This document shows, piece after piece, positions 3,001 to 16,895 of a stretch of DNA of 16,895 nucleotides. Where the stretch lies: the NCBI GenBank assembly GCA_050506795.1, contig JBJHCF010000067.1:1-16895 (forward strand). Reading direction: 5' to 3'. Position numbers and translations under genes: made by a program. This DNA is from Opitutia bacterium. Lineage in GTDB: Bacteria; Verrucomicrobiota; Verrucomicrobiia; Opitutales; T3Sed10-336. Position 1 is the first letter of the stretch; each line of letters opens with the position of its first letter. The notes below the pieces were generated by a model that worked only from the letters and a program-made list of their open reading frames with translations, had not been told where the DNA came from and did not search any database.

Positions 3001-6000
3001 TGTCGGCCTCAGCAGTGACCGGGAATGGATCGGAGCCCAAGAGCCTGGGTGCCAGTTCACCAAACGAAATCGTCTGTGACACCCGCTCGACCGTTAACTC
3101 CCGGCTAACCGGATTCGCCGGCGCGTAATGCTCGTCGCCGGCCTGGACCGCGGTGAGAATCGTCCGACCCGGACGGTGAACGGTAACCGTCCCCTCATCG
3201 ACCGAGGCCACCTCCGGATTCGAACTGAAAAACACCAAAGGCAATCCGCTGCCGACCGATGCTTCCGGCACAAACGGCGCCGCGGTGAAGGGCCGGGGAT
3301 TCATCGCCGCGAAATCGATGGACTGAGGCTCCCGGCCGGGGAGCCAATTTTTTTCGTACAACCCCGATGAGGTGCCAACCGTCGTGCGGGCCAAAGCACG
3401 CACCTGATCGAAATTGCTCCAATCCACACCCTCCAGGCGCCAACCGCGGTCGATATATTCTCCCCAACCGAGATCAACCCAAGGGTCCTCTCCCGACTTC
3501 CCCTGAAAGGACACCGCTTGCGGCACCGGGGCGGTGCCGACCGAGAACCAGTGCAGACGATCTCCTTCGTTCGCCAGGAATACCATTCCAGGGTCGTTGT
3601 TCAAGCGGATCAGGTTTTTCGGAATCCTTTGGAAGCCGTCGAAACGATCGAACGAACCCCCGATCCAAATTTTCCCGTCTTCCTGCAGTGCGATCCGCGA
3701 CACTCCGCCGGTGGTGCCCGAACCGATGGAATCACTTACCACCGTATCCACGGATCCGTCACGCTGCAAGCGCACCAGACCCTGCGGCAGACCGCTCCGA
3801 TCGCCCACCCGATTGACAGTGCCCGGGATCAGGAGCCGGCCATCTCCCTGCAACACGGGAAAACTCGGCGAGCCGCCCAGATCGTAAACCGGCGCCCCGG
3901 ATTCGTCCTCCATAAGGTGACCGTCGGAATCGAGCCAGACCATCGAACCGGCCTCCCGACCGTCGAAGGCCAGGCCGCCGCTCAGGAGAATGCCGCCGTC
4001 CGGCAGGACCGAAAGCATGAATACATTTCCCGCCGGCCCGGCGCCGATCGCGTCCAGGAATTCGCTGTCGACTGAACCATCCGGCAACAGGCGGACCAGG
4101 CGCGGGACCTCCACACCATTGAACTCGGTAAAGTCTCCCCCGAGGAGAATACCGCCATTGGGTTGGACCACAACGTTGCGCACCCGGTTGTTGGCACCGG
4201 TGCCGATCCCGGCCAGAAAGGTTTCGTCAAGGGAACCGTCAGAGTGCAACCGGACCACCCTCCCGGCGCGTTGGCCGTCAAAGAAGGTGAACTGACCAGC
4301 GACCAGAACCTTGCCATCGGATTGCAGCGCCAGGCTGAGGACCTCGTTGTTCGCTGAAGAACCACGGTTCTGCCTGAACGCTTCATCCACGCTTCCGTCG
4401 CCCTGCAAACGCACCACCCTCCCTGCCGTAACGCCGGAAAAAGCAGTGAATGTTCCACCGAGAAGCAGGCCGCCGTCCCTGTCCACAATAACCGCGTTGA
4501 TCGCGTTGTTGGCCCCGCTGCCGGTATTGGCCACAAAATCCTCGTCGACCGTGCCGTTGGGAAAGAGTCGCACAATCCGCCCCACCGCGACTCCGTCGAA
4601 ATCGCCGAGCACGCCCCCGACCACCAGCTTTCCGTCCGGCTGGAAGGCGATGGTTCTGACGCCGTGCGCGGCGCCGGTTCCCAGGTTGTAATTGAAAGCC
4701 AAATCCATGGTTCCCGCGGCGACAGGCGGATCGATGACCTCGAGAACTCTCGTCACCGGCGCCGCCGGAAGAAAATTCTCATCTCCCGGCTGCGAAGCGG
4801 TCACCTCTACAACGCCGATCATGTGGGGAACAAGCGCCCCATTCTCGATGGAGACGATTCCCGGATCCGAGCTGCTGAATTCAATCGGCAATCCCGTCTC
4901 CCGGGTGGGGAATCCGCTGCGCGACAAGGCTTCAAGCACCACCGGCGGCGCATTAACGGGTATCGGATCCAGCACGGGAAAATTGATGGTCTGTTGCGCT
5001 TTTTCGATTACCAGAACCCGGGTGACCGGCGGCGCCGCCTCGTAGTGCTCGTTCCCCTCCTGAAAGGCCGTGATTTCGACCTCGCCGGCGCCGTGCGCCA
5101 CCACCCCGTTTCCCTCGATCGAGGCCAGTTCGGGATCCGAACTGACAAATGACACTGGAAGTCCGCTGCTGGCGGAGGCTTCCAGGTTGACGAGCGGAAA
5201 GTTGTAGGTGTGCCGGTAAGTCACCGTCGGCAACGCATCGAAGGCGATGGTTTGCGCCCCCTTCTCCACCACCAACTCCCGGGAAACGGCCGGCGCCGGA
5301 GCAAAGGTTTCGTTGCCTGCCTGGTAAGCGGTGATCGTCGTGCTGCCGGCGCCGTTGATTTGCACCTGTCCCCGGACCACCGAGGCCACGCTGGAATCCG
5401 AGCTGATAAACTGAACCGGCAGCCCACTGGATGCCGCCGCCGCCGGCACGAACGGATCCACTCCGACGGATCGATCGGCCAGGGCCGGGAAATCGATTTC
5501 CTGGCTTTCCTCCGCCAGAATCACCTCCGCCGCCACCAGGCTCACACCGCGATTGGATGGGGTCAGTGCCAGCGACCGGACCCGGTCCCAGGGGGAGAGG
5601 TCGATTTCGGCCAACTCCCAGTAGTCCGCCGTACGGACTCCTTCGCCCAGATCGATCCAATCTCCGTCGCCCGCGGCACCCTGAAAGATCACACCGTGAG
5701 CCTCCCCGGCGCCTCCGCCGCGAATCAGACGCAGACCGTCGTCAACAGCCCACAGAAACTCCCCGGCATCGAATCCCGCCACCCGGGTTATCCCAAGGCC
5801 TCCGTTCCCGTCCGACCGGGAGAACGAACCGATCACGACGATCGAGCCGTCAGCCTGCACGGCGGTCCCGGAGACCTGGCCAAATCCAATCGAGAATCGG
5901 TTGTGAAATTCCACGACCGCACTTCCATTGGTATTGAGAAAGGCTATTCTACTGGTCGAAGGTTGCACCCCTGATGAGGAAAAATCACCGGTCACGAGGA

Positions 6001-7030
6001 GCCGGCCATCCTCCATGTGCTGCATGCGACGGACGTTGTTACTGAACACGTCCCAACGGGTCGCCATATAGTCCTCGTCAGGCATCCCGTCGGGCAAAGC
6101 TTTCAGAAAATACCGGTATTGAATATCTCCCTGAAAGCGAAAAAACTCGCCACCCGCGTAAAAGTGATCGTCGGGCAACGGCACCACTACCTGCAAGGTG
6201 TGATTGAACCCCCCGACCTGCCCTTCGACAAAGTCTCCATCCACCGTACCGTCTGGGTGAAGGCGCGTCAGGTAGGGTGAACCCGTATACCCGGAGGCGG
6301 TGAGAGAACTTCCGCTCAGCCACAACCGCCCCTGGCGGTCGATGGCGATGGAGTTAACGGTCGGCAGAGCGGGCGGATGAAAGGTGCCAGTCAGATTGGC
6401 GTTGAATGCCGTATCGGGCGTACCGTCCGCATTCAACCGAACCAGGCCGGCCAGTCCGTGGAAATCGCGAAAACGCCCGCCGATCAGGAGGCCGCCATCG
6501 GGCTGGGGCACAACACTGTGCACCGCTCCGTTCGGACCGGCCCCCAGTGCAGTCAGAAAATCCTGGTCCAGCGATCCATCGGAATGCAGGCGCACCAGGA
6601 AATTCGCGCTCTGACCATCGAATGCTTCAAACGATCCCACGACCACAATCCCGCCGTTTGGCTGCACCGCGACGGCAATTACGGCTCCGTCGAATCCCAT
6701 CCCCATCGCCTGAATAAACGGCTCGTCCAACGATCCATCCGGCATCAGGCGCGCCAGGCGAGGCGCCGGGGCGCCGTTGAATTCCGTGAACGAACCGCCG
6801 ACCAGCAGCTTGCCGTCGGGCTGCAACGCCACCGCGGTCGCCGGGGCGGAGAACCCGGCGCCTATCGCGTCGATAAACGCGTCGTCCCGTTCCCCGGGAA
6901 GACTCCCCGCGACCGCGTCGGAAAAGATCACGGCCCCCAGCAAAGACAGCACGGCCGGCCAGAACGTCGCCGCACGATTCACGGCACGACGGCACAGCGG
7001 ATACAGAAAGGGTGTTCGGGTATCAAACAT
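1..7030 (-). CDS. Giant secreted delta-60 (DUF5122) repeat / Ig-like domain surface protein, 3'-truncated by the window edge (>=2343 aa)
   Basis: Manual translation from ATG at 7030 stays in one frame to base 2 with no stop found, which explains its absence from the ORF track. N-terminus MFDTRTPFLYPLCRRAVNRAATFWPAVLSLLGAVIFSDAVA-G looks like a signal peptide. Delta-60-type blades (e.g. AVALQPDGKLLVGGSFTEFNGAPAPRLARLMPDGSLDEPF) occur in three blocks at about 6900-5770, 4720-3600 and 2810-1730. Ig-like units (QxIxF...ASSGLPVxFxSSxPxVAxV...ITAxQxGxxxYxxAxPVxRxLxV) occur three times at about 5505-4735 and twice at about 3330-2830. He_PIG-like units (GLPPGLVLDAITGTISGVP; SLPDGIEFDPGSGEFSG) lie at about 1440-955. 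BNR/YCF48-like blades (VAVGxxGxILxSxDGxxW) lie at about 940-100. Domain boundaries are approximate. Confidence 0.92.
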   Translation of the reverse strand, partial: MFDTRTPFLYPLCRRAVNRAATFWPAVLSLLGAVIFSDAVAGSLPGERDDAFIDAIGAGFSAPATAVALQPDGKLLVGGSFTEFNGAPAPRLARLMPDGSLDEPFIQAMGMGFDGAVIAVAVQPNGGIVVVGSFEAFDGQSANFLVRLHSDGSLDQDFLTALGAGPNGAVHSVVPQPDGGLLIGGRFRDFHGLAGLVRLNADGTPDTAFNANLTGTFHPPALPTVNSIAIDRQGRLWLSGSSLTASGYTGSPYLTRLHPDGTVDGDFVEGQVGGFNHTLQVVVPLPDDHFYAGGEFFRFQGDIQYRYFLKALPDGMPDEDYMATRWDVFSNNVRRMQHMEDGRLLVTGDFSSSGVQPSTSRIAFLNTNGSAVVEFHNRFSIGFGQVSGTAVQADGSIVVIGSFSRSDGNGGLGITRVAGFDAGEFLWAVDDGLRLIRGGGAGEAHGVIFQGAAGDGDWIDLGEGVRTADYWELAEIDLSPWDRVRSLALTPSNRGVSLVAAEVILAEESQEIDFPALADRSVGVDPFVPAAAASSGLPVQFISSDSSVASVVRGQVQINGAGSTTITAYQAGNETFAPAPAVSRELVVEKGAQTIAFDALPTVTYRHTYNFPLVNLEASASSGLPVSFVSSDPELASIEGNGVVAHGAGEVEITAFQEGNEHYEAAPPVTRVLVIEKAQQTINFPVLDPIPVNAPPVVLEALSRSGFPTRETGLPIEFSSSDPGIVSIENGALVPHMIGVVEVTASQPGDENFLPAAPVTRVLEVIDPPVAAGTMDLAFNYNLGTGAAHGVRTIAFQPDGKLVVGGVLGDFDGVAVGRIVRLFPNGTVDEDFVANTGSGANNAINAVIVDRDGGLLLGGTFTAFSGVTAGRVVRLQGDGSVDEAFRQNRGSSANNEVLSLALQSDGKVLVAGQFTFFDGQRAGRVVRLHSDGSLDETFLAGIGTGANNRVRNVVVQPNGGILLGGDFTEFNGVEVPRLVRLLPDGSVDSEFLDAIGAGPAGNVFMLSVLPDGGILLSGGLAFDGREAGSMVWLDSDGHLMEDESGAPVYDLGGSPSFPVLQGDGRLLIPGTVNRVGDRSGLPQGLVRLQRDGSVDTVVSDSIGSGTTGGVSRIALQEDGKIWIGGSFDRFDGFQRIPKNLIRLNNDPGMVFLANEGDRLHWFSVGTAPVPQAVSFQGKSGEDPWVDLGWGEYIDRGWRLEGVDWSNFDQVRALARTTVGTSSGLYEKNWLPGREPQSIDFAAMNPRPFTAAPFVPEASVGSGLPLVFFSSNPEVASVDEGTVTVHRPGRTILTAVQAGDEHYAPANPVSRELTVERVSQTISFGELAPRLLGSDPFPVTAEADSGLPVTFTSSNPAVASVSGNQVTVHASGETTITASQAGDGFYLPADPVEREFQVLAVSEGPDELDLLFSDRLGLGANGVLYAIAASPDGDLYLGGDFDEFNSVAVRRLVRVDADGRLAESWNPATGNALGGAVTAFRWQRDGGMLVGGEFRSRLRAGVAGGLARLDSLENWDAAFADNLGEGFAGTVYGMYECGDGRIMVWGEFVSVNGEPTGNLALLESDGSLASVFAGSDGPVYSALPLADGDWLLAGGFSAFGGQPANRLVRINAEGEPNESFALALGDGPDGDVFALSRDPENRIVAAGEFTVFDGAEAGRLVRFDEDGQIDASFNQGLGDGPDGPVRSLVVRADGDLILAGAFSRISGVDTMGLARVGSDGAVDDSFAPLDSLAGSDQVRGVTGLADGSLVVTGEFVGPLQGANLLRIFGDSSEAGLRIDARGIVLEIGGSAPWPGAAHLEASIDGAHWISVGPGHIDADRWRFAGLETVGLPQVRVISHSGGGLFNGSGSATVYQASLASEVLSPLAHSAVVGRDTWYQVEASRFPLRFYGAGLPPGLVLDAITGTISGVPVLAGEFEVTIGASNATGWVETALLRIQVHPATGPLPVLKSESHLAIGPRESLQYSIRYDGNGLPVEVTTVSLPDGIEFDPGSGEFSGELPAGFYEIVFDLANAYGTVRKTVAVTVYNSGGAALTSGVAETLHGIATNGDEYVAVGEGGLILRSTDREIWEPVSADVPHDLFSVAYGGQRFVVVGDHGTVLTSTDAVNWMSVAVPINTALRSVRYLGGAFVAVGDGNRVLWSSDGLSWVVHIATFSVHLQAVTQGPQLVAVGEWGGVTLEESLESTFGRPRWQRILTSASGAFQGIAYGNGRYVAVSDSGEVALSDDGLTWEIRTVPGVDAFRDVVYSDKTFLALAANTSGDSTETGALLVSFDDGENWHELGEWPNVYSGLAVEADPWIAVGSGGAILSGTGSPTEMLIVSGPRVKALLEGRYVSLPIEYVGD

Positions 7031-7238
7031 GGGAGGTTAAAAGAAGGTTTGGGTTATCGTTTTGACAACGAACAAAAACGTAGCAGGAGCGAGAATCGAC
7101 GGCGGCTTTTCAGGCTCACGCCGTCAACCGGGCGCCATTGGACAAGAATCTTTTTGGCGCAAACTGGCAAACCTTTTCCCTCACGCCCGGTCTCGTTGAG
7201 CGTGAACAACGCCGGACCTTACCTGGAAATCGCCGCTC

Positions 7239-7676
7239 TCAGCGCAGTTCCGGCGGGGGCGGGCGGCCGGAGTGCCAGTGGCCGTGGCCGGGATCCCAAT
7301 GGCGGTCGTTGACCGGATCGTACTCCCAGGGGACGGGGATTCCGGTCCACGGCGACGCCGGTCGATTCCGTTCCGGAGGCGGCCCGTCATGCCAATGCCC
7401 GTGGGTGGGATCCCAGTGGCGATCATTGGCTTCGTCATATTCCCAGGCGGCGGGAGGCGGCTCCGGAGGAGACGACCACGGGCGGGTAATGCCCAAAACG
7501 ATGATCCCGACGAGCAGGCAGACAAAAAGGATCAAACGCAAAAACGCCGGCCGATTCCGGCCGGAGCGGGCGTCATCCGCCGCATGGTTCTCCTCTCTCG
7601 CCGCTCCGTCGGAACGCGCGCGGGCTTGATTTCCATGCGCGCCGCCGTGCCGATTTTTCTTTTTCCGTGGTGCCAT
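7239..7676 (-). CDS. Hypothetical single-pass membrane protein with two His/Trp-rich repeats (about 145 aa)
   Basis: Part of track ORF 7239..8003. The start was moved to ATG 7676 because the longer form overlaps the psd 3' end. It has a basic N-terminus (MAPRKKKNRH), one TM helix (FLRLILFVCLLVGIIVLGI), a Pro linker and two copies of WEYDxxNDRHWDPxHGHWHxGxPP. Confidence 0.8.
   Translation of the reverse strand: MAPRKKKNRHGGAHGNQARARSDGAAREENHAADDARSGRNRPAFLRLILFVCLLVGIIVLGITRPWSSPPEPPPAAWEYDEANDRHWDPTHGHWHDGPPPERNRPASPWTGIPVPWEYDPVNDRHWDPGHGHWHSGRPPPPELR
7257..7445 (-). repeat. Intragenic duplication of a 24-codon His/Trp-rich unit (7374-7445 and 7257-7328, 117-nt period)
   Basis: WEYDEANDRHWDPTHGHWHDGPPP versus WEYDPVNDRHWDPGHGHWHSGRPP. 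Several codons differ at silent positions while the W/H/D residues are kept. Confidence 0.9.
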
Positions 7677-7840
7677 GAAACAAAGATTCGCACGATGACC
7701 CGAAAAACACAAAAGCAATGTTCCCCTTTGGCCGCGGCCGAACCAGGAACCAATCCCTAAACAGATTGGGTCGAGGAGCGTGGGGGAAAAGCGGTGGAAT
7801 GAAGGGATGAAATCATGGCGGGTATCCTGCCCGGCACGGT

Positions 7841-7866
7841 TTCGTGCAATTCGCGCAATTCGTGGT
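7841..7866. repeat. Period-9 short tandem repeat (TTCGTGCAA TTCGCGCAA TTCGTGGT) just downstream of the psd stop
   Basis: Seen directly in the intergenic sequence. No inverted partner arm was found nearby. Confidence 0.55.
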
Positions 7867-7896
7867 CGAGAGTTTCCTGACCGAGGGCCATTCAGA

Positions 7897-8802
7897 CTAA
7901 GCCCGGCTGACTCCCAGGCGGTCACCCATGCGGGCGTAGGTTTCCAGGCCCTGGGCGGAGTTGCGCACCAGGTCGTCGTCGAAACGGATGCGGCCGGGCT
8001 CAAAGAGCAGGATCACGCAGGAACCGCCGAATTGAAAGTAGCCCTTTTCCTGTCCACGGCCGATTTCGCCGCCTTCGGGATAGGTTTGCACCACGCTGCC
8101 CACACAGGTGGCGCCGATCTCCAGGTAGAGGACCTGACCGAAATGTTCGGCATCCAGCCGGGTCACGAAACGGCGGTTCCGCCAAAGAAACGACAAGCGC
8201 CGCCGCAGGGCGTAAGGACTGACGGAATAAAGGTCGCCCGGAATCTCTTCAGCCCGGCCGGCAGTCCCGGCGCAGGGGAAGTGAAACCGGTGATAATCCA
8301 CCGGGCATAATCGAGAGACGGTCAGTGAGCCTCCGGCATAACGGGCGGCAAGAGCATTGTCACCCAGGAGTTCCGGCAGGGAAAAGGTTTGTCCCTTGGC
8401 GTAAACCCCTTCCACCGCGTTCAAGTCCGGAAAAACCAGGTGCCTCCCGTCGGCCGGGAACACCGCCGTCTCCGGACCGCCGTTCAACGGACGGGCTTCC
8501 GGTTTCAGTTTTCGCGAGAAAAAGGCGTTGAAATCGGAATAGGTCTCCGCCGGTTCGGCAAACTCCGATTCGTCGAGCCCGTAATCCCGGATAAAGGGCC
8601 GTATACGGGCGCGACTGCCCGGCCGGCTCATTCGCCAGCCGAACAAACGGGAGAAAAACGCCCGTTTGACCAACGTTTCCAGGAGAAACGTCCCGGGAGC
8701 CGTCCCGTAGGTCCAGCGCAGCCAGAGTCCTCCGTAAACCTTCTCCTCCCGCCGTTCGCCCCGGTAACGATCGACGTAAACAATGCCCTCCGATTCCTTC
8801 AT
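7897..8802 (-). CDS. psd: Phosphatidylserine decarboxylase proenzyme
   Basis: Motifs FNAFFSRKLKPEARP, FPADG, RLCPVDYHRFHFP, EIGATCVGS and the autocleavage/pyruvoyl site KGYFQFGGS. ATG at 8802 (301 aa) is preferred over the track start at 8814. Confidence 0.95.
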   Translation of the reverse strand: MKESEGIVYVDRYRGERREEKVYGGLWLRWTYGTAPGTFLLETLVKRAFFSRLFGWRMSRPGSRARIRPFIRDYGLDESEFAEPAETYSDFNAFFSRKLKPEARPLNGGPETAVFPADGRHLVFPDLNAVEGVYAKGQTFSLPELLGDNALAARYAGGSLTVSRLCPVDYHRFHFPCAGTAGRAEEIPGDLYSVSPYALRRRLSFLWRNRRFVTRLDAEHFGQVLYLEIGATCVGSVVQTYPEGGEIGRGQEKGYFQFGGSCVILLFEPGRIRFDDDLVRNSAQGLETYARMGDRLGVSRA

Positions 8803-8902
8803 TAAGCGCAGCAAAACGGAATGGCGCGCCGTTGTCCACCGGGATGGCTTGCCTCCGGATAAATTCGTCCTCTAATCTCCACCTCCCCCATTGATCCTGC
8901 CC

Positions 8903-8998
8903 ATGAAACTCTTTCAGCTTACCCGCCGCGAAAAGAAAACCCTCTCCGTGCTGCTCCTCCTGCTCTTGCTGGGATTTGTCGGCCTGCTAGTGCTCTAG
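8903..8998 (+). CDS. Putative 31-aa small membrane protein (MKLFQLTRREKKTLSVLLLLLLLGFVGLLVL)
   Basis: ATG 8903 to TAG 8998, divergent from psd. Basic N-terminus followed by about 18 uninterrupted non-polar residues, with mostly GC-ending Leu codons (CTC/CTG). It is below the ORF-track size cutoff. Confidence 0.6.
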   Translation: MKLFQLTRREKKTLSVLLLLLLLGFVGLLVL

Positions 8999-9062
8999 CG
9001 GGAATGGCACTCGGTTGAGACGATGGTTCGAAGAAGCTTAGCCTAATCGCATCGGTCGTTCC

Positions 9063-9150
9063 CCTGGAGGGCCATGCTCCCGCGTGGCCGCCGGCTTGGG
9101 AGTGCGGCCATCCTGTCCGCACCGGCGGCGCGGGAGCGCCGCCCTCCAGG
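9063..9150. repeat. REPIN-like inverted pair of GGAG-headed palindromic repeats enclosing a second REP-like unit
   Basis: 9066-9089 GGAGGGCCATGCTCCCGCGTGGCC versus the reverse complement of 9124-9147, GGAGGGCGGCGCTCCCGCGCCGCC. The outer CCTGGAGGG/CCCTCCAGG match is perfect. An internal unit GGGAGTGCGGCCATCCTGTCCGC lies at 9098-9120. Confidence 0.65.
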
Positions 9151-9185
9151 AAGCAGAGGCGCGATTGCGATTCGGTTTTTCAAAC

Positions 9186-9249
9186 GATGAACCTGCTTAA
9201 CCCAAGTTCATCCAGGCTAGCCTGGATCCGCCGGATTTTCAAATTCCGG
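9186..9249. promoter_or_regulatory. Cluster of inverted repeats upstream of siaA, including a perfect 18-bp palindrome (possible operator or RNA structure)
   Basis: ATCCAGGCTAGCCTGGAT (9210-9227) is self-complementary. It is flanked by GATGAACCTG/CAAGTTCATC (9186-9212) and CCGGA/TCCGG (9231-9249). Function is not demonstrated. Confidence 0.35.
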
Positions 9250-9395
9250 TGAAGTTGCCCTCGCTGGCAAAACCGCTCTTGCCTAACGAGTGAAACCTTG
9301 ACAACCCTTTTCACGCATAGGGTAAACCCTTATCTCGAACTAAAGCAATCAACTCAGACTCCGGCCTGCATCACCGTGGAAAAGCTCCAGCAATC

Positions 9396-11411
9396 GTGAC
9401 CGAAACCAATCAAAGGCCCATAAGCGGATCCCTGCGCAAGGTTTTCCTGACCGTGGTAGCTTTTGCCTACCTGGTAACGCTCACCGGCGCATTTGTCGCA
9501 TTCTACTGGAGCGCCCGCAGCATTAGCGACGAGTATGTGGAACGTTTTGCCCTCGCTCAGAACGAACTCGAGCGCAACCGGATCCTTTCCCTGGTGGACC
9601 GGGAACTCGCCCTGAGCCGGAAGCTTGCCGACGACCCGCAGGTCCGGGACTGGATTCGGGATGAGAACGATCCGGAACTGCGGGCTCTGGCGCAAAGGCA
9701 GATCGAGAGCTACCATCGTTTTCTCGGCTACGGGACGGTATTTGTCGCGGTGCGCTCCAGCGGGAATTATTACGTCAGCGCCGGCGAAAGCCCCGATCTG
9801 ATGCAGACCGTGTTGGACACCAATGATCCCGATGATCGCTGGTTTTTCGAATTCCTGGAGCGCAACCCCGATTACTCGATGAACGTCAATTACGACGCCC
9901 TGCTGGACGAGGTCCGGGTGTGGATGAACGTCATCGTGCGCGACGCGGACGGCGCCCCCATCGGGGTCGCCGGTTCGGGCATCGATCTCACCCGGTTCCT
10001 GGAAAACCTGGTGGAACATAGCGAACCGGGCATCCGTACCATCATCGTCAATTCGGCCGGGGAACTCCAGGCTCATCCGGACCGTTCTCTCATCGAGCAC
10101 AATGCCCGGGTGGTGGATGACGCCGACAAAGTCACGGTGTTCGATCTGCTCGACGACTCCAAAAGCATCGGCTCGCTGCGTTCGGCCATCGCCGGAAACG
10201 CGACGGGTGCGAAGCTGTTTCCGCTGGTAATGGACGGACAGACCGCGGTGACCGCGGTGGGGAGCCTAACCGACCTCGACTGGCACAACCTGGTGCTCGT
10301 CGACGCCGGAACGATTATCGGTCCGGGCGATTTTCTTCCCCTGGGATTGGTCTTCCTGGCCTCGTTGCTGGCGGTCCTGTTCTGCCTGATGTTCCTTCTG
10401 AATTCCTTGATCATTGATCCGCTGCAAAAACTTACCCGGGCCGCCGGATCCGTCGCCGAAGGCGCCCACGACACACAAATCCCGGAGGGCGGAAACAATG
10501 AAATCGGGGAACTGAGCGCGTCGTTCAACACCATGACGCGAAAAATCCGGCAGTACACCTCCGGGCTGGAATCGATGGTGAAAGAGCGCACCAAAGCGCT
10601 GGCCGCCACCAACCGCGACCTGACCGCATCGCAGAAGCGGATTACGGATTCCATTCAGTATGCGCGGATAATTCAAAACTCGATCCTGCCCTCTCCCCAA
10701 GAACTCGATCCCCATCTGGCCGAGTACTTCGTCATTCTGGAACCGGTCGATCCCGTGGGCGGGGACTTTCATTTTTTTCGGGAAACCCGCGACGGGTTCT
10801 GCGTCGCCGCCGTGGACTGCACTGGTCATGGGGTGCCGGGAGCGTTCATGACGATGATGGTCAACGCGCTGCTGAACCGCATCATCGAAACCGCCCCCGA
10901 CAAAGGACCGGCCGCCGTGCTCGACACGCTCCACGTTCTGGTGCAGGAAACCCTGCGCGGCAACGCCAATGGAGGCCAGGCGGTGGAGAACGGTCTGGAC
11001 ATCGCCTTCTGCCGGGTACGGCCGGGCGACGAGGTGATTGATTTCGCCGGCGCCGGACTCCCGCTTTTTGTAAAAGACGACCTGGGCATTCGCGAAATCC
11101 CGGGCGATCGCCGCCGGCTCGGCTTTTCCTCCGCACACGAATCCCGCGCCTTCACCGAACACCGTCTGGCACTCTCTCCGGAACAGACCTTTTACCTGAC
11201 CTCGGATGGAGTTCTCGATTTGCCGGGAGGGGAAAAAGGGTTTGGTCTCGGTCGCAAGCGGCTGACGGAACTCCTGTCCCAACTCGCCGGCCGATCGCTG
11301 GCTGAACAGGAGGAACACCTGCGCCAGGCATTGAAGGATTATCGCGGCGACCACCCCCAAAGGGACGACCTGTTACTCTGTGGGTTTCGGGTGAGTTTAA
11401 CGAAGGAATAA
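9396..11411 (+). CDS. siaA: SiaA-family membrane PP2C/SpoIIE phosphatase (TM - Cache-like sensor - TM - HAMP - PP2C)
   Basis: Two TM segments flank a periplasmic region with SiaA-like motifs (RELALSRKLAD, YSMNVNYD, VWMNVIV, QAHPD). HAMP: PLQKLTRAAGSVAEG...NEIGELSASFNTM. PP2C: DSIQYARIIQNSILP, VGGDF, DCTGHGVPGAFMTM, SDGVLD, QRDD. It is first in an operon with siaB and siaC. Confidence 0.9.
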   Translation: MTETNQRPISGSLRKVFLTVVAFAYLVTLTGAFVAFYWSARSISDEYVERFALAQNELERNRILSLVDRELALSRKLADDPQVRDWIRDENDPELRALAQRQIESYHRFLGYGTVFVAVRSSGNYYVSAGESPDLMQTVLDTNDPDDRWFFEFLERNPDYSMNVNYDALLDEVRVWMNVIVRDADGAPIGVAGSGIDLTRFLENLVEHSEPGIRTIIVNSAGELQAHPDRSLIEHNARVVDDADKVTVFDLLDDSKSIGSLRSAIAGNATGAKLFPLVMDGQTAVTAVGSLTDLDWHNLVLVDAGTIIGPGDFLPLGLVFLASLLAVLFCLMFLLNSLIIDPLQKLTRAAGSVAEGAHDTQIPEGGNNEIGELSASFNTMTRKIRQYTSGLESMVKERTKALAATNRDLTASQKRITDSIQYARIIQNSILPSPQELDPHLAEYFVILEPVDPVGGDFHFFRETRDGFCVAAVDCTGHGVPGAFMTMMVNALLNRIIETAPDKGPAAVLDTLHVLVQETLRGNANGGQAVENGLDIAFCRVRPGDEVIDFAGAGLPLFVKDDLGIREIPGDRRRLGFSSAHESRAFTEHRLALSPEQTFYLTSDGVLDLPGGEKGFGLGRKRLTELLSQLAGRSLAEQEEHLRQALKDYRGDHPQRDDLLLCGFRVSLTKE

Positions 11412-11416
11412 AATCA

Positions 11417-11965
11417 ATGAGAAGCATAATTGAAATCAAAGACTTCTTCGCTGAGGAAGGCATTCTGATCAGTTTCCACGGCTCCTTCAGCCACGGGATC
11501 GTCGAAGAAATTGGTAACGCGGTCCGGCGCCATCTCGAAAACCAACAGTTGGAACGGGGTATCATCAGCGATGTCTTCGCCGTCTACATCGAGCAGACCC
11601 AAAACGTCCGTAATTATCTGAAACGCAAAAATTTCTTGGAACCGGCTCAAAGCTCCGCGATCGTGTTGATCGTCCAAACAGGCGGCGATTATCTCCTTTG
11701 TTCAGGCAACACTATCGCCCGTGAAGACGTCCAGGACCTGGAAACCCGACTGGAAAAAATCAACAGCTCCGACCGAGACACTTTGAAACGAATGTACAAG
11801 GAACAGTTAAGAAAACCGCTTGAAGCCAAAGCCACCGGAGCCGGTGTGGGCCTCATCGATATCGCCCGGCGTTCTCCGGAAAAGCTCGGATACCGTTTCG
11901 ACCCCCAGGACGAACGGCACGATTTCTTCAGCTTATTCGTCAAAGTTGCGGGAGGCGACCGATGA
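11417..11965 (+). CDS. siaB: SiaB-family protein kinase (GHKL/SpoIIAB-like)
   Basis: Motifs FHGSFSHGIVEEIG, VYIEQTQNVRNY, SGN, LKRMYKEQLR and GAGVGLIDIARRS. SD-like AAGGA lies upstream. Confidence 0.9.
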   Translation: MRSIIEIKDFFAEEGILISFHGSFSHGIVEEIGNAVRRHLENQQLERGIISDVFAVYIEQTQNVRNYLKRKNFLEPAQSSAIVLIVQTGGDYLLCSGNTIAREDVQDLETRLEKINSSDRDTLKRMYKEQLRKPLEAKATGAGVGLIDIARRSPEKLGYRFDPQDERHDFFSLFVKVAGGDR

Positions 11966-12348
11966 TCGATATTCCCGCCAGTAAATCGTCACCGGAAATC
12001 AGGTATTCCGAATCGGACAACACCTTGACCATATCCGGAGAATCGTATCCGGAGAACTCATTCGCATTCTTTCAGCCTGTATTTGAGTGGTTGCACGACC
12101 AGCTCAAACGAAAGGAGCAGTTGCATGTCAGCATAAACATAAGCTACATGAATTCCAGCAGCACCAAATGCATGCTGGACATTCTCGATTTGCTCGGAGA
12201 CACCAGCAAGCACGATTGCTCAACCACGGTATCCTGGCATTACGAAAAGGAAAACGACCGCGCGCTGGAGTTGGCCGAGGAGTTCCAGGAAGAGGCGGCG
12301 GTTCCCTTCCGTATTATTCCCTGCGATAACCCGGATCAACGCCCATGA
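11962..12348 (+). CDS. siaC: SiaC-family regulatory phosphoprotein (DUF1987)
   Basis: Motifs GESYPEN..FF.P..WL, YMNSSSTK and VSWHY...ELAEEF. ATGA overlap with the siaB stop, and GGAGG SD upstream. Confidence 0.92.
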   Translation: MIDIPASKSSPEIRYSESDNTLTISGESYPENSFAFFQPVFEWLHDQLKRKEQLHVSINISYMNSSSTKCMLDILDLLGDTSKHDCSTTVSWHYEKENDRALELAEEFQEEAAVPFRIIPCDNPDQRP

Positions 12349-14123
12349 AAAACTCCTCCGACGACTTTTTCGAGCACCTGATGCAGAATCAACCCACTGA
12401 GGGAGCCTCCGGTGCTCCCGGGAAGGGAGAGGCCTCTCATTATATCAAGCTGGTTCAGCAATTCGCCAAAGTCATGGCGATCTCCGACAAGTACCAGGCC
12501 GAAGTGGTGGACATGGCCGAACAGTTGCGGGGATCCAAACAACAGTTGGAAAGCGCCCAACGCGAACTGCGCCAGAGCGAAACGAGGTTTCGCAACCTGA
12601 TCGAGAACCTGCCGGTGGGGGTCGCCATGTTTTCCACCGACATGAGCCTCCTGACCATCAACCCGATGATGGATCGCTGGTTTCCGGCGATCACCAAAGG
12701 CCCATGCTGCGACACCGGAGAAATCCTCGAAGAGGATGATGATTCGGACCAGACAAAGCCATCTCCGGTCCTGCGCGCTCTGGCCGACGGGCGGATCCAT
12801 ACCGGAGAGTTCGAGATAACCAGCGACCACGAACGAAGAGTTCTCCAGGTCACGGCAACCGCGGTCAAAAACGCGGATGATGAAGTGACCGCAGTCATCG
12901 AAATGGCGGAGGACATCACCGAGCGCAAACGAACCGAGGCCGAACGAAAACGGCTGGACGCCCAGGATCGCAGCCTGGAGAAATCGGAAAGCCTGAGCCG
13001 CATGGCGGCGGCCATCGCCCACCATTTCAACAATCAGTTGCAGTCGGTCATGGGTAATCTTGAACTGGTGATGGACGACGTTTCACGCGAAGACCCCATC
13101 AACCTCCGGCTCAACAGCGCCATGCAAGCGGCGCGCAAAGCGGCCGAAATGAGCGCCCTGATGCGCGCCTACCTCGGGCAGGCCAGCTTGCGCCTGCAGA
13201 CCATCGACCTCGCCGCCACCTGCCGGGACAATCTGGCGGCTTTGACGGCCAATCTCCCCGACGGCTTTACTTTGCGCACCGAAATCCCCGACTCAGGTCC
13301 CCTGATCAAAGCCGGGGGCGAGCAGATCAAACAAATCCTCAGCAGCCTGGTCACCAACGCCTGGGAAGCCATGGAGGAAGCCGAACGGGGCGTAATCCGC
13401 ATCAAGGTGAAAACGGTGAACCCCGGGGAGATCTCCGCGCCTTACCGGTTCCCGGTCGGATGGAGTCCATCCAACCGGGACTCAGCCTGCCTTGAGGTGT
13501 CCGATTCCGGCAAGGGAATCGAAAGCGCGGACATAGATAAAATCTTCGATCCTTTCTTCTCGAACAAATTCACCGGACGCGGCCTCGGATTGTCCGTTGT
13601 CCTCGGCATGATCCGGGCCGCCGGAGGTGGTGTGACCGTGAACACCCGGCCGGGAATCGGCAGCACCTTTCGCTGCTTTTTCCCCGTCATTGCCGACTCC
13701 ATCGCCTGCAAGCAGGACGGGAAAACGCGCCAGGCGCCCAATGATCGACCGGCGAAAATCCTTCTGGTCGAAGACGAGAAAGCCGTCCGCGAAATGTCGG
13801 TGGTGATGCTGCAGCGCATCGGTTTTGAGGTCGTCGAAGCGGAAGACGGAGAAAAGGCGGTGGAGATTTTCCAACGGGCTCCGCAAGAGTTCAATTGCGT
13901 GGTTTGCGACCTCAGCATGCCGCGGATGAACGGATGGGAAACCCTGACCGCGCTGCGCAGCATTCAGGCGAACATCCCGGTGGTCCTTTCCAGCGGATTC
14001 GAAGAGGGATACGTCATGAAGGACGAACATGAGGAAAAGCCGCAAGCATTTGTCAGCAAGCCCTACAATATCGAAGACCTTAGAAACGCGATAAACCGGG
14101 CTCTCGGAGTGAACGAGCCCTGA
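12345..14123 (+). CDS. Cytoplasmic hybrid sensor histidine kinase (SiaD-like N-terminal coiled coil - PAS - HisKA - HATPase_c - REC), CckA-like architecture
   Basis: PAS: ETRFRNLIENLPVGV...EDITERK. H-box: SLSRMAAAIAHHFNNQL. N-box: QILSSLVTNAWEA. G1: VSDSGKGI. F: IFDPFFSNK. G2: GRGLGLSVV. REC: ILLVEDE...CDLSMPRMNG...LSSG...FVSKPY. No TM segment and no GGDEF. ATGA overlap with siaC. Confidence 0.93.
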   Translation: MKNSSDDFFEHLMQNQPTEGASGAPGKGEASHYIKLVQQFAKVMAISDKYQAEVVDMAEQLRGSKQQLESAQRELRQSETRFRNLIENLPVGVAMFSTDMSLLTINPMMDRWFPAITKGPCCDTGEILEEDDDSDQTKPSPVLRALADGRIHTGEFEITSDHERRVLQVTATAVKNADDEVTAVIEMAEDITERKRTEAERKRLDAQDRSLEKSESLSRMAAAIAHHFNNQLQSVMGNLELVMDDVSREDPINLRLNSAMQAARKAAEMSALMRAYLGQASLRLQTIDLAATCRDNLAALTANLPDGFTLRTEIPDSGPLIKAGGEQIKQILSSLVTNAWEAMEEAERGVIRIKVKTVNPGEISAPYRFPVGWSPSNRDSACLEVSDSGKGIESADIDKIFDPFFSNKFTGRGLGLSVVLGMIRAAGGGVTVNTRPGIGSTFRCFFPVIADSIACKQDGKTRQAPNDRPAKILLVEDEKAVREMSVVMLQRIGFEVVEAEDGEKAVEIFQRAPQEFNCVVCDLSMPRMNGWETLTALRSIQANIPVVLSSGFEEGYVMKDEHEEKPQAFVSKPYNIEDLRNAINRALGVNEP

Positions 14124-14198
14124 TCCGAAAGAAACCTCGACCGAAAGAACGGGCACATTCCACCGCCGCTGCGGTCGGAAAGATTCCACCGAAGGTTC

Positions 14199-14915
14199 AT
14201 GCGCACAGACCGCCTCAACCAGGATTCCATCGGACGCGAAATCGCCTCCGGCCGACAAGTCGTCGTGCTTCTCCACGGCTTGGCGCGTCGCCCAAGCTCC
14301 ATGGCGAAACTGGCGCGTGCCCTGGCTGATGCCGGATACGTGCCGGTCAATCATGGGTATCCGTCCCGCAAACACACCATTGAGGAACTGGTCGACAGCT
14401 ACCTGAAACCCCTCCTCGACACCCTGCAAGCCGCGGGCGCCAGCCGGATTCACTTCGTCACCCACTCCCTCGGAGGAATCCTCCTGCGCCAGTACGTTCG
14501 CCGGCACGGCGCCGCTCTGGTCGGACGAGCGGTCCTGATCGCCCCGCCGAATCACGGCAGCGAAATCGCCGACCGCCTCCGGCCCCTGGGTCTGTTCCGC
14601 CGTTTTTACGGCCCCGCGGGCCAACAACTGGGAACCACCAGCGACCAACTCCCCGGTCAGTTGCCGGACGCAGACTTCGACGTCGGGGTGATTGCCGGAA
14701 CCCGAAACTGGAACCCAATTTTCAAACGCTGGCTGCCGGGCCCCAGTGACGGCACCGTAAGCGTTGAAAGCACGCGCTTGGGGAACTCCACGGGCTTCAT
14801 CGCCATACCGGCGACCCATCTCCTCATCATACGTCATCCGCAGGCCATCGCCCTCACCCTCCACTTCCTGGCCAACGGCTCGTTCGACCCGGCCGGCAAT
14901 TCCCGGGAATCGTGA
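14199..14915 (+). CDS. Alpha/beta-fold hydrolase (lipase/esterase-like)
   Basis: VVLLHGL oxyanion motif, nucleophile elbow VTHSLGG, PPNHGS, catalytic Asp in SDGTV and His in ATHLLI. Confidence 0.88.
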   Translation: MRTDRLNQDSIGREIASGRQVVVLLHGLARRPSSMAKLARALADAGYVPVNHGYPSRKHTIEELVDSYLKPLLDTLQAAGASRIHFVTHSLGGILLRQYVRRHGAALVGRAVLIAPPNHGSEIADRLRPLGLFRRFYGPAGQQLGTTSDQLPGQLPDADFDVGVIAGTRNWNPIFKRWLPGPSDGTVSVESTRLGNSTGFIAIPATHLLIIRHPQAIALTLHFLANGSFDPAGNSRES

Positions 14916-15010
14916 TCGGCCCACATCCGGTACGAAATCGAACCCGTACCCTGAAATACCACTCGATTAGGGCCGTTGAACGAAGTAGCGCACGCCTACA
15001 TTGGCAGGTT

Positions 15011-15082
15011 CTCACACGGAGTCACGGAGCTCACGGAGGCGGGTTCGGTTGATTTCTCCGTGTCTTTGTGGCTCCGTGTGAG
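15011..15082. repeat. Long hairpin built from CACGGAG sub-repeats (MITE/REP-like; may double as a terminator)
   Basis: Left arm CTCACACGGAGTCACGGAGCTCACGGAG (15011-15038) pairs with right arm CTCCGTGTCTTTGTGGCTCCGTGTGAG (15056-15082). A T-rich stretch follows at about 15087-15104. Confidence 0.7.
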
Positions 15083-15216
15083 GCCAATTTTCGATTTATT
15101 TTTTGCTTCATCAAACGATGAAACGCCTTGCCCGAGAGATTTACCCGGATATCATTTTACAGTAAGAACCAGGCACACTTGCCTCTGGATACCTTCGCCG
15201 GTAATACAGTGACCCT

Positions 15217-16548
15217 ATGATTATCAAACCCTTTTCCCTGTCCGTCGCCTTCCTCGCCCTGGCACTGACGGCAGCCTCGTCCGCCTTCGCCCAGATCGGC
15301 ACGCGTTTTCCGTCGGAAAAAGTGATCGTTGAGGATCCGGTAACCGGCGTTCCCTTGACCTTCCTGACCAGCACTCCGGTCGGAGACTCCAAGATCTACC
15401 AGACCCACCCGCAGTGGACCGCCGACGGCGAGTGGCTGATCTTTCGCTCCAATCGTGTCCCGGGCGAAGCCATGGCGGTCAACGAGGAGACCGGCGACCT
15501 GGTCCAGGTCACCGAGGGCGGATATCGGGGAATGCTGGTAATCGCCCAGAAGTCCATGACCCTGTACGCCATGCGCGATGCCGAACGGGGCTCGGGATAC
15601 CGGGAAATTATCGCCGTCGATCTGGCCAAACTCTTCGCCGACAGCGAATCCAATTCTCTGGAAGACGAATCCGCCTACCAAACCATCATCGGCGAAATCC
15701 CGGGCGACTGGGGCGCCGGGGGCGATATGGCCCTGGACGCCGATGAGGATGTCATCTACTTCCGGGTGGGACCCGGTAAGGCCGCCCAACACCTGCCCGA
15801 GGGTGTCGAGCCGGAGGAGAATTTCGGGCCGCGCAACATGGGCGCCGGTCCCACCGGGATCGCCAAAATGGACGTGGCCACCGGCGAGCTCGGTTTTGTG
15901 GTCGCCGTTCCTTTCCAGGCCGGGCACGTGCAGACCAACCCCTGGGTGCCGGGCGAAATCCACTTCTGCTGGGAAACCGGCGGCAAGGCGCCTCAACGCA
16001 CGTGGATCGTCAACGCCGACGGCACCGGCCTGCGGCCGTTGTACCCGGAAGCGGACTACGAATGGGTCACCCACGAAGCGGTGATCACCCCCGACGAAGT
16101 CGCCATCGCCATCATGGGCCACCGCAGCCCCGGCACCGAGGACGCCTGGGGCATTTCCGGCACGCGGGAAAAACCGACCGGCCTGGGGATCATCAACATT
16201 CGCACCGGCGAAATGCGCATCGAGGGTCAAACCGCCAGCGGCAGCGGGCTTTGGCACGTCCACGGATCGCCGGACGGACGGTGGGCCGTGGGTGACGACT
16301 TCGCCCGCGACATCTACCTGATCGACCGCCGCAATGGCGAGATGATGCTTCTCTCCACCGGACACAAACCCACCGCCGCGGATCACCCCCACCCCACCTT
16401 CAGCCGCGACGGCACGAGGATCCAGATTCAGAGCGCCATGCTCTCGGACGACGACCGCGCCATGAACATCTGCATCATCCCAGTGCCCCAGGAATGGCTG
16501 GACCGCACCTACGACGAACCCACCTCGCTCTACCGGCGGGCGCCTTGA
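15217..16548 (+). CDS. Oligogalacturonate lyase (PL22/Ogl)-like beta-propeller protein with signal peptide
   Basis: Signal peptide ending SAFA-Q. Ogl-like motifs GTRFPSE..EDPVTG..LT, YQTHPQW, GHVQTNP, FCWE, QRTW, WVTHE, WHVHGSPDG..VGD and HPHPTFSRDG. Confidence 0.75.
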   Translation: MIIKPFSLSVAFLALALTAASSAFAQIGTRFPSEKVIVEDPVTGVPLTFLTSTPVGDSKIYQTHPQWTADGEWLIFRSNRVPGEAMAVNEETGDLVQVTEGGYRGMLVIAQKSMTLYAMRDAERGSGYREIIAVDLAKLFADSESNSLEDESAYQTIIGEIPGDWGAGGDMALDADEDVIYFRVGPGKAAQHLPEGVEPEENFGPRNMGAGPTGIAKMDVATGELGFVVAVPFQAGHVQTNPWVPGEIHFCWETGGKAPQRTWIVNADGTGLRPLYPEADYEWVTHEAVITPDEVAIAIMGHRSPGTEDAWGISGTREKPTGLGIINIRTGEMRIEGQTASGSGLWHVHGSPDGRWAVGDDFARDIYLIDRRNGEMMLLSTGHKPTAADHPHPTFSRDGTRIQIQSAMLSDDDRAMNICIIPVPQEWLDRTYDEPTSLYRRAP

Positions 16549-16552
16549 TATT

Positions 16553-16615
16553 GTCGGCTTCGCCGGTTCCTGGTTCTTTGTTCTTTGTTCATGGTTGGGA
16601 AGCCGGCTTCGCCGG
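16553..16615. repeat. Heptamer tandem (GGTTCCT GGTTCTT TGTTCTT TGTTCAT GGTT) bracketed by two CGGCTTCGCCG mini-hairpins
   Basis: Seen directly right after the stop of the Ogl-like gene. The first hairpin plus the T-rich tail could act as a weak terminator. Confidence 0.5.
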
Positions 16616-16688
16616 GGAACGTAATAATTTGCTTTTTGAGGTGGGCTCCGAAGCAGTGATCTCCGGGAACCTATGCCCTCGGCATTGT

Positions 16689-16892
16689 CCGCCTGAAGCA
16701 CGGACCTACGGGGCCGAATTCGTAGCGCCCTGCTTTAGCGGGCGTCTGAGGGGCGTGCCGACGACGATTCCAGGGAACAACTCCGGCTGAAGCACGGACC
16801 TACGGCGGTAGCGCCCTGCTTTAGCGGGCGTCTGAGGGGCGTGCGGACGGCGATTCCAGGAGGGAACAACTCCGGCTGAAGCACGGAGCTAC
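16689..16892. repeat. BIME/REPIN-like array of alternating GTAG-headed 21-nt REP elements (continues to the window edge)
   Basis: Reverse-oriented units CCG(C/G)CTGAAGCACGGA(C/G)CTAC at 16689-16709, 16783-16803 and 16872-16892. Forward units GTAGCGCCCTGCTTTAGCGGG at 16722-16742 and 16808-16828. The roughly 40-nt linkers are near-identical and the period is 86-94 nt. Confidence 0.8.
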
Positions 16893-16895
16893 GGG

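Follow-up and report, generated by a model that had tools for sequence, protein, structure and literature searches.

A SiaABC Partner Switch Encoded with a Soluble Hybrid Histidine Kinase That Carries a Predicted SiaC-Docking Motif

Introduction

The SiaABCD system of Pseudomonas aeruginosa combines a phosphatase (SiaA), a kinase (SiaB) and a small DUF1987 phosphoprotein (SiaC), whose sole characterized target is the diguanylate cyclase SiaD (PMC7647112; PMC8457831). The helical stalk of SiaD has two nearly identical motifs to which SiaC binds, and the cyclase is activated through stabilization of its stalk dimer (PMC8457831). Within this complex, SiaC Thr68 reaches in between the two helices of the stalk to bond with S82 and Q86, or with S50 and Q54 in the other motif, while further SiaD contacts are made by R74, K77, V78, R80, I81, D83, R84, Y85, M88, R90, and D91 (PMC8457831). 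Here we analyze a 16,895-nucleotide stretch from an Opitutales genome (Opitutia bacterium, GenBank assembly GCA_050506795.1, contig JBJHCF010000067.1, positions 1–16,895; hereafter the window), in which siaA, siaB, siaC, and a hybrid histidine kinase gene form a single row of four plus-strand open reading frames (ORFs) at 9396–14123. Judged from sequence and by analogy with SiaD, we assign a probability of roughly 0.65 to the proposal that a translationally coupled siaABC cassette works here with a soluble PAS hybrid kinase bearing a SiaD-type motif, on which unphosphorylated SiaC would dock and switch the kinase, most likely on.

Partner switches of the STAS type also control diguanylate cyclases, as in the HptB-HsbR-HsbA-HsbD pathway of P. 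aeruginosa and the BgrSTUWV-BgrR pathway of Sinorhizobium (cited in PMC8457831). The discussion of PMC8457831 proposes that DUF1987 proteins modulate "adjacent proteins," and names no kinase among them, while PMC9239204 cites SiaABCD solely as a merger of PP2C and cyclic di-GMP (c-di-GMP) signaling. Full-text literature searches, with subscription papers outside their scope, returned no description of a SiaC/DUF1987 protein joined to a histidine kinase.

The Kinase Encoded After siaC Carries a Predicted Docking Motif of the SiaD Type

The fourth gene of the row (12345–14123, + strand) encodes a 592-residue protein in which residues 42–51, KVMAISDKYQ (12468–12497), align with the SiaD contacts and form the predicted SiaC-docking motif. 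Kinase residues K42, V43, I46, S47, D48, Y50, and Q51 correspond to SiaD K77, V78, I81, S82, D83, Y85, and Q86, making seven of the ten aligned contact residues identical. The motif lies in an N-terminal module (residues 1–89; 12345–12611) common to SiaC-adjacent cyclases, recognized by its similarity (40% identity, E 1e-14) to residues 1–93 of a PAS-GGDEF protein encoded after siaC in a Desulfatirhabdiaceae metagenome-assembled genome (L020). Outside this module the two proteins show no similarity.

Profile comparisons connect the module to SiaD itself. A profile (A2) based on 22 N-terminal sequences of SiaC-adjacent kinases, with cyclases excluded, had a single match among 177,635 distinct PDB sequences, namely SiaD (7e6g_A, E 3.8e-8), and the alignment takes in both motifs to which SiaC binds. 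Across the 20,023 open frames of 100 or more residues in the 4.94-Mb assembly (4.39 million residues), this kinase gives the only match to the strict motif. When a regular expression for the motif was applied to the proteins encoded after siaC at 80 other loci and in four relatives, each was matched once or twice, except at L050, where siaA follows siaC and the next frame carries the motif together with an H-box-like sequence. In several kinase classes the motif helix continues into the H-box helix, about 25–40 residues before the His, an arrangement that resembles the SiaD stalk running into the GGDEF domain.

The module also keeps company with SiaC across genomes. Among 60 relatives from the window's order, A2 matched four, all of them SiaC holders with each match directly after siaC, and none of the 55 SiaC-less relatives. 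Among 300 genomes drawn evenly from the phylum, a set that partly overlaps the 60 relatives, A2 matched two, both SiaC holders, and none of the 296 SiaC-less genomes; in two more SiaC holders the motif has diverged (KMTRIGDSVQ and KLVHISDAIQ) and falls below the A2 threshold. From 1.84 billion representative proteins, a broader profile made from the docking module of both kinases and cyclases (A3) recovered 501 clusters at E ≤ 0.001, 160 of them at E ≤ 1e-10. Pfam assignment of the best 150 of these 501 clusters gave 108 GGDEF proteins, 25 kinase-type proteins (HATPase_c is present in 23, and the other two are short fragments that match HisKA or HisKA_3 alone), and 17 proteins, most of them short, without a family at E ≤ 1e-5; no third enzyme class was found among the best 150. 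Kinases and cyclases share, by these comparisons, a predicted N-terminal docking module. The initial annotation had described SiaABC as a portable input module with swappable outputs, an idea to which a module common to both enzyme classes gives a physical basis.

These data also bear on the possibility that the kinase is co-transcribed with siaABC but functionally independent of it, its motif being a relic of a coiled-coil stalk with no role in SiaC binding. SiaC binding to the stalk is a prediction, and coiled-coil segments can yield weak chance similarities. Nevertheless, Q39–Q51 is invariant except at position 49 in five orthologous kinases that are 44–88% identical overall, the module was never seen without SiaC in the genomes searched, and it is found on at least two enzyme classes, always adjoining siaC. 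We therefore consider a relic very improbable.

In many SiaC-adjacent outputs, such as the GGDEF proteins of L045, L048, and L052, the first docking motif is followed by a conserved element rich in Cys (LPICxYCKKIR...YWQxVE). Two siaC-adjacent ORFs of 139–148 residues (L044:6369–6788 and L046:5550–5996) consist of the docking module and the Cys-rich element only and match no Pfam family.

The siaABC Genes and Their Coupling to the Kinase Gene

The siaA-like gene (9396–11411, + strand) encodes a 671-residue membrane PP2C phosphatase, identified by Pfam, NCBIfam, hydropathy, and a PDB match; its predicted start is a GTG, the earliest initiation codon to follow a stop. The protein is laid out as a transmembrane segment (about residues 15–38), a periplasmic dCache domain (48–233), a second transmembrane segment (about 313–335), a HAMP domain (335–386), and a PP2C domain (466–666), and hydropathy places the two transmembrane-like segments on either side of dCache. 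Pfam dCache_1, at 37.5 bits, falls short of its cut-off of 45; HAMP and SpoIIE/PP2C are matched as well, and the NCBIfam SiaA model gives 565 bits, below its equivalog cut-off of 700. The PP2C part matches that of P. aeruginosa SiaA (6k4e_A) at E 7.6e-60 and retains the motifs GGDF, DCxGHG, SDG, and RDD, which correspond to the conserved active-site residues D457, D474, G477, D600, G601, and D653 named for the P. aeruginosa enzyme (PMC7647112).

The siaB-like gene (11417–11965, + strand) encodes a predicted 182-residue protein kinase of SiaC that matches DUF6272 (135.6 bits), the NCBIfam SiaB-family model NF038262 (185.8 bits, cut-off 85), and chain 6kko_A (E 1.1e-34). Its score against the SiaB equivalog model is 155 bits, below the cut-off of 225. 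The siaC-like gene (11962–12348, + strand) encodes a predicted DUF1987 switch phosphoprotein of 128 residues, with 127.3 bits against Pfam SiaC (PF09345, cut-off 24.5), 127 bits against the SiaC equivalog (cut-off 150), and E 1.9e-24 against P. aeruginosa SiaC (6kko_C, 6kkp, 7e6g).

Alignment places Ser65 of the window SiaC (codon 12154–12156) at the position of P. aeruginosa SiaC Thr68 and makes it the predicted phospho-acceptor, within NSSSTK where P. aeruginosa has NTSSIK; of 26 aligned SiaC sequences, at least 90% have Ser there. Of the P. aeruginosa SiaC residues in contact with SiaD, Y65, N67, S69, D79, R103, L107, and E110 are identical in the window protein, and D114, M75, and I71 are replaced by Glu, Leu, and Thr, respectively, with the contact list taken from PMC8457831. 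In this comparison, numbers in the PDB SiaC chain equal the paper's numbers plus one, an offset that we infer because all residues named by the paper then fit the letters of the chain.

The junctions between the four genes are tight. The TAA codon of siaA ends at 11411 and is followed by five nucleotides (aatca) and the siaB ATG at 11417, while siaB and siaC (11962–11965) and siaC and the kinase gene (12345–12348) are joined by ATGA overlaps; a GGGAGG sequence lies 7–12 nucleotides upstream at the siaB/siaC junction. These positions and the coupling by one 5-nucleotide gap and two ATGA overlaps agree with the initial annotation. A promoter and terminator scan of 8700–15200 found sites no more numerous than in shuffled sequences.

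Domain Organization of the Hybrid Histidine Kinase

Pfam and NCBIfam matches and box positions identify the fourth protein as a soluble hybrid histidine kinase in which the N-terminal docking module is followed by a PAS domain, a DHp domain with H226, a catalytic ATPase domain, and a receiver with D522. The PAS domain spans residues 87–196 (12603–12932; PAS_4, 33.3 bits, cut-off 23.1), the HATPase_c domain residues 326–448 (13320–13688; 68.7 bits, with N, G1, F, and G2 boxes), and the receiver residues 472–584 (13758–14096; Response_reg, 73.4 bits, with D522 and K572). An NCBIfam CckA alignment covers residues 65–585. The H-box AHHFNN begins at residue 225 (A225–N230), and the N, G1, F, and G2 boxes lie at 335, 387, 401, and 411. 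His226 (codon 13020–13022) is the predicted phospho-accepting histidine, which we take to be the phosphorylation site by analogy with AHxFNN-type H-boxes; the whole box, including His226, is invariant in five orthologues.

Most of the PAS-HisKA-HATPase-REC architecture without GGDEF that was first assigned to this gene is borne out, since the PAS, HATPase, and receiver domains and an H-box are present and the Pfam scan gave no GGDEF match in the fourth gene, whereas Pfam HisKA was not matched on the kinase at E ≤ 0.01. The absence of a membrane anchor was likewise confirmed by hydropathy, which indicated zero transmembrane-like segments (highest 19-residue Kyte-Doolittle mean 1.59).

The receiver seems to be an optional part of SiaC-linked kinases. 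It is fused to the kinase here and in the same genus, it is not present in the orthologues of L016 and L040 and is absent in two sister genera, and in three Methanospirillum loci a separate REC-only gene follows the kinase gene. In other SiaC-adjacent kinases the receiver is joined to an Hpt domain.

Histidine Kinases Follow siaC in Several Lineages

SiaC is rare in the window's order, being present in 5 of 60 other genomes. In the four of these with a readable siaC context a kinase gene follows siaC, and the fifth is cut by a contig end. The same-genus relative encodes a PAS-kinase-REC protein of 591 residues, two other genera encode PAS-HisKA-HATPase proteins without a receiver, and a fourth genus encodes a minimal HisKA-HATPase protein beside flaF and a maf-like gene. 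The phylum sample gave a similar result, with SiaC in 4 of 300 other genomes and a kinase next to it in all four, two of them hybrid. Conserved siaC-kinase adjacency, which the initial annotation had named beforehand as a feature to look for in other genomes, was thus found in every readable case in the order and in the four further genomes of the phylum, as well as in 21 of the 80 nearest loci described below.

A pattern scan with one genome per species yielded 208 confirmed SiaC relatives, of which the 80 most similar were kept. At these best 80 of 208 loci, the gene after siaC encodes a GGDEF protein in 53 cases and a histidine kinase in 21 (18 identified by Pfam scan, plus three Opitutales loci already among the order-level relatives); the remainder comprise three proteins with no Pfam family, one PAS fragment cut by a contig end, one siaA, and one case with no ORF before the contig end. 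The kinase share of 21/80 is inflated and is no population estimate because the loci were picked by likeness to the window SiaC. Kinase-type loci occur in Opitutales, Cloacimonadota, Thermotogaceae, Spirochaetes, Azospirillum, and the archaea Methanospirillum/Methanomicrobiales, and in nearly all loci siaA, siaB, and siaC lie upstream in the same order.

Three groups of these loci show variations of their own. The Methanospirillum loci (e.g., L014, L019, and L037) have the order siaA(PP2C)-siaB-siaC-kinase, with SiaC 57–63% identical to that of the window; their SiaA matches the window SiaA over the PP2C part alone, and the sensor therefore differs. In Azospirillum, a GGDEF protein gene follows the SiaC-adjacent kinase gene (L084:7268–8400 and L089:7280–8068, with a 4-nucleotide overlap in L089), and the N-terminus of the GGDEF protein reads KIAKISDRMQ or KIAKISDRIQ next to KIAKISDRLQ in the kinase. 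Since these docking modules are nearly identical, one SiaC may control both enzymes. Finally, L009:1020–4141 (genome G037) has a divergent siaB-siaC pair and a minimal 318-residue kinase, immediately followed by flaF and close to a maf-like (MptE-like) gene, with no siaA seen upstream of siaB-siaC. This neighborhood hints at a motility-related output for the G037 kinase.

Other Potential SiaC and Phosphorelay Partners in the Genome

The genome, which is 97.8% complete, encodes a single SiaC and a single GGDEF gene within its 4.94 Mb. The latter encodes a REC-GGDEF-EAL protein on a different contig (C2:90486–92603, − strand; L098:6484–8598), scores 146 bits against a SiaD cut-off of 290, lacks the docking module when module models are run over the genome frames, and is an orphan with no kinase beside it. 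No canonical siaD was thus found elsewhere in the genome, where the initial annotation had counted one, as the sole SiaC partner, against its coupling of SiaABC to the kinase. Together with the conserved adjacency and the shared docking module, this result supports that interpretation. Because the kinase carries the SiaC-docking motif of SiaD, the SiaABC switch in this genome likely feeds a phosphorelay rather than the synthesis of c-di-GMP.

The REC-GGDEF-EAL gene overlaps a 700-residue gene with a cyclic nucleoside monophosphate (cNMP)-binding domain, and GGDEF matches are sparse across the window's order with the query used. We also considered a c-di-GMP end point in which the kinase feeds the sole REC-GGDEF-EAL protein, and found no support for it: the gene is an orphan and its phyletic pattern is not supportive. 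Full-length orthologues among the relatives are present in one SiaC holder (G001) and in two genomes where SiaC was not found (G006 and G011), and none of full length was found in G003, G007, or G037, the genomes with a SiaC-kinase arrangement.

The composition of the genome is relevant to a further alternative, in which the kinase sits upstream of the switch or acts as a sink. It would then sequester SiaC, or use a cytoplasmic signal sensed by its PAS domain to shift the balance between SiaA and SiaB, and the true output of SiaC would lie elsewhere or be missing. The PAS domain does give the kinase an input of its own, and two-component parts do feed other partner switches, such as HptB-HsbR-HsbA (cited in PMC8457831). 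However, the genome offers no other frame with a docking module and no second SiaC, and minimal, sensor-less HisKA-HATPase kinases of other lineages carry the motif directly, which fits a role as target better than one as input. An upstream or sink role is improbable on this evidence, though marginally less so than a relic motif.

A Proposed Mechanism for SiaC Control of the Kinase

By extrapolation from P. aeruginosa, the dCache-HAMP part of SiaA would sense a periplasmic or membrane cue, presumably extracellular in nature, and the PP2C domain would dephosphorylate SiaC Ser65, which SiaB would re-phosphorylate. Free SiaC is predicted from the motif match to bind a parallel dimeric stalk formed by kinase residues of about 30–85. 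Because each kinase chain has one docking site, two SiaC molecules would be expected per kinase dimer, compared with four per SiaD dimer. If events follow the SiaD analogy, SiaC would fix the stalk dimer, and its register would be passed via PAS to the DHp helices and result in more autophosphorylation at His226. The phosphoryl group would then move to the fused receiver Asp522 and on to a further partner. The PAS domain between the stalk and DHp may add a second, cytoplasmic input.

Several observations weigh against this proposal. First, three of the ten aligned contacts differ in the kinase (R74 to Q39, R80 to A45, and R84 to K49, where Lys is conservative), and the kinase has a single docking motif compared with two in SiaD. 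Second, the tools that reveal the module have limits: a single-sequence PDB search with kinase residues 1–93 missed SiaD and gave five matches, the best at E 0.044, all unrelated coiled coils, and the hidden Markov models of the module, which match this kinase alone among 42,960 frames (next best E 8.7), contain the window sequence, so that the self-match arises by construction and the absence of others is the result. Third, no Hpt partner or response regulator is linked to the operon, and the sole Hpt match in the genome lies in a 934-residue frame on another contig, C13. Fourth, transmission would be less direct than in SiaD because PAS separates the stalk from DHp. Finally, the activating sign of SiaC control is taken wholly from analogy.

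The last point leads to an alternative with the same docking and the opposite sign, in which unphosphorylated SiaC inhibits autophosphorylation or imposes a phosphatase mode on the kinase. Small protein inhibitors of kinases act in just these ways, by inhibition or by a shift to phosphatase mode. The docking evidence applies equally to both signs, which the sequence does not fix, and the intervening PAS domain could invert the signal. We nevertheless favor activation because SiaC activates SiaD by stabilizing its stalk dimer (PMC8457831), and histidine kinases likewise act as dimers. Inhibition by SiaC is in our view unlikely, although clearly less so than either a relic motif or an upstream role for the kinase.

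Evolution of the Cassette and Its Outputs

A quick maximum-likelihood tree of concatenated SiaB and SiaC was determined for 80 rows, excluding two loci with short SiaB pieces; the L039 row was labeled as a kinase from its PAS fragment. Twenty of the 23 kinase-coupled rows cluster in one 23-row group (SH-aLRT 90) that spans five phyla and both prokaryotic domains and also contains two GGDEF rows and L050. The Azospirillum rows and the long-branched G037 row fall outside this main group. At least four changes between kinase and cyclase outputs are required on the tree, compared with a mean of about 20 when shuffled.

The kinase cores within the main group differ in type, comprising AHHFNN with PAS (the window), SHEIRTP HisKA with REC-Hpt (Cloacimonadota and Thermotogaceae), and PAS with HATPase (Methanospirillum). 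This diversity indicates that the cassette has moved between hosts and that its outputs have been swapped on more than one occasion. Being unrooted, the tree does not give the older output, whether kinase or cyclase. The term "rewired," by which the initial annotation implied a direction from cyclase to kinase, was accordingly too strong.

Neighboring Genes

The cassette is flanked by genes of other types. An open frame of more than 2343 codons (2–7030, − strand) runs off the start of the window, contains 12 DUF5122 beta-propeller repeats as well as He_PIG and Big_2 Ig-like domains, and probably encodes a giant surface protein. A phosphatidylserine decarboxylase gene (7897–8814, − strand; PF02666, 185 bits) is divergent from siaA across a 580-nucleotide gap. 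On the other side, an alpha/beta-hydrolase gene (14199–14915, + strand) begins 75 nucleotides 3′ of the kinase gene. It was considered as a member of the system and rejected because it is not retained with the cassette in locus L016, which instead has miaA and trpA on the opposite strand after the cassette.

Implications for Signal Input to Histidine Kinases

Soluble sensor-less histidine kinases are common, and their signal input is often unclear. One general explanation of our observations, which we hold to be about evenly balanced between right and wrong, is that the helix of about 60–90 residues containing K-[IV]-x-x-I-S-D-x-Y-Q is a portable SiaC socket. SiaABC would then be a detachable transmembrane sensor for any dimeric signaling enzyme, and the cassette would have moved to two-component kinases where c-di-GMP machinery is scarce, as in this genome with its one GGDEF gene and in Methanospirillum. 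If this is true, a Ser/Thr phospho-switch would stand in for the sensor domain that otherwise blind histidine kinases lack, and sequence alone would suffice to predict the targets of SiaC, with a SiaC neighbor plus an ISDxYQ helix as the annotation rule. SiaC itself would change from the regulator of one Pseudomonas cyclase into a general adaptor for two or more classes of output, spread over bacterial phyla and into methanogenic archaea. Because the motif ties the kinase to a Ser/Thr switch with a solved structure and binding mode on SiaD, the link from Ser/Thr to His-Asp phosphorylation can be tested by point mutants.

Comparison with Known Systems

Control of histidine kinases by small accessory proteins is familiar from Sda or KipI with KinA, PII with NtrB, and FixT with FixL. 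In these pairs, as in the arrangement proposed here, a soluble kinase gets its input from a separate binding protein, not from its own sensor domain. Where their binding sites are known, however, such regulators bind the DHp or catalytic domain and use no dedicated N-terminal docking helix, and we know of none that is set by a dedicated kinase/phosphatase pair.

The STAS-type switches are alike in that a small, Ser/Thr-phosphorylated STAS-like protein swaps partners and controls a signaling enzyme by direct binding. In contrast to the window system, their switch proteins are of the canonical STAS type and their pathways lead to the synthesis of c-di-GMP (cited in PMC8457831). HsbR places a two-component part upstream of the switch, whereas in the window the predicted order is the reverse, from switch to kinase.

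The closest known system is SiaABCD of P. aeruginosa (6K4E, 6KKO, 6KKP, and 7E6G; PMC7647112; PMC8457831). In both systems, genes for a membrane-bound dCache/HAMP/PP2C phosphatase, a SiaB-family kinase, and a DUF1987 phosphoprotein follow one another in this order, the Thr68 position is occupied by a residue that can be phosphorylated, and the product of the next gene opens with a helical stalk bearing K-V-x-x-I-S-D-x-Y-Q. They differ in output, which is a PAS hybrid histidine kinase in the window and a GGDEF cyclase in SiaABCD, in the replacement of Thr68 by Ser, and in the number of docking motifs, one here and two in SiaD. The window Sia proteins also score below the NCBI equivalog cut-offs (565/700, 155/225, and 127/150). 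Because three of the four parts and the docking motif are present but the GGDEF output is absent, the window system, as judged from its sequence, is a variant of SiaABCD and not a member of it.

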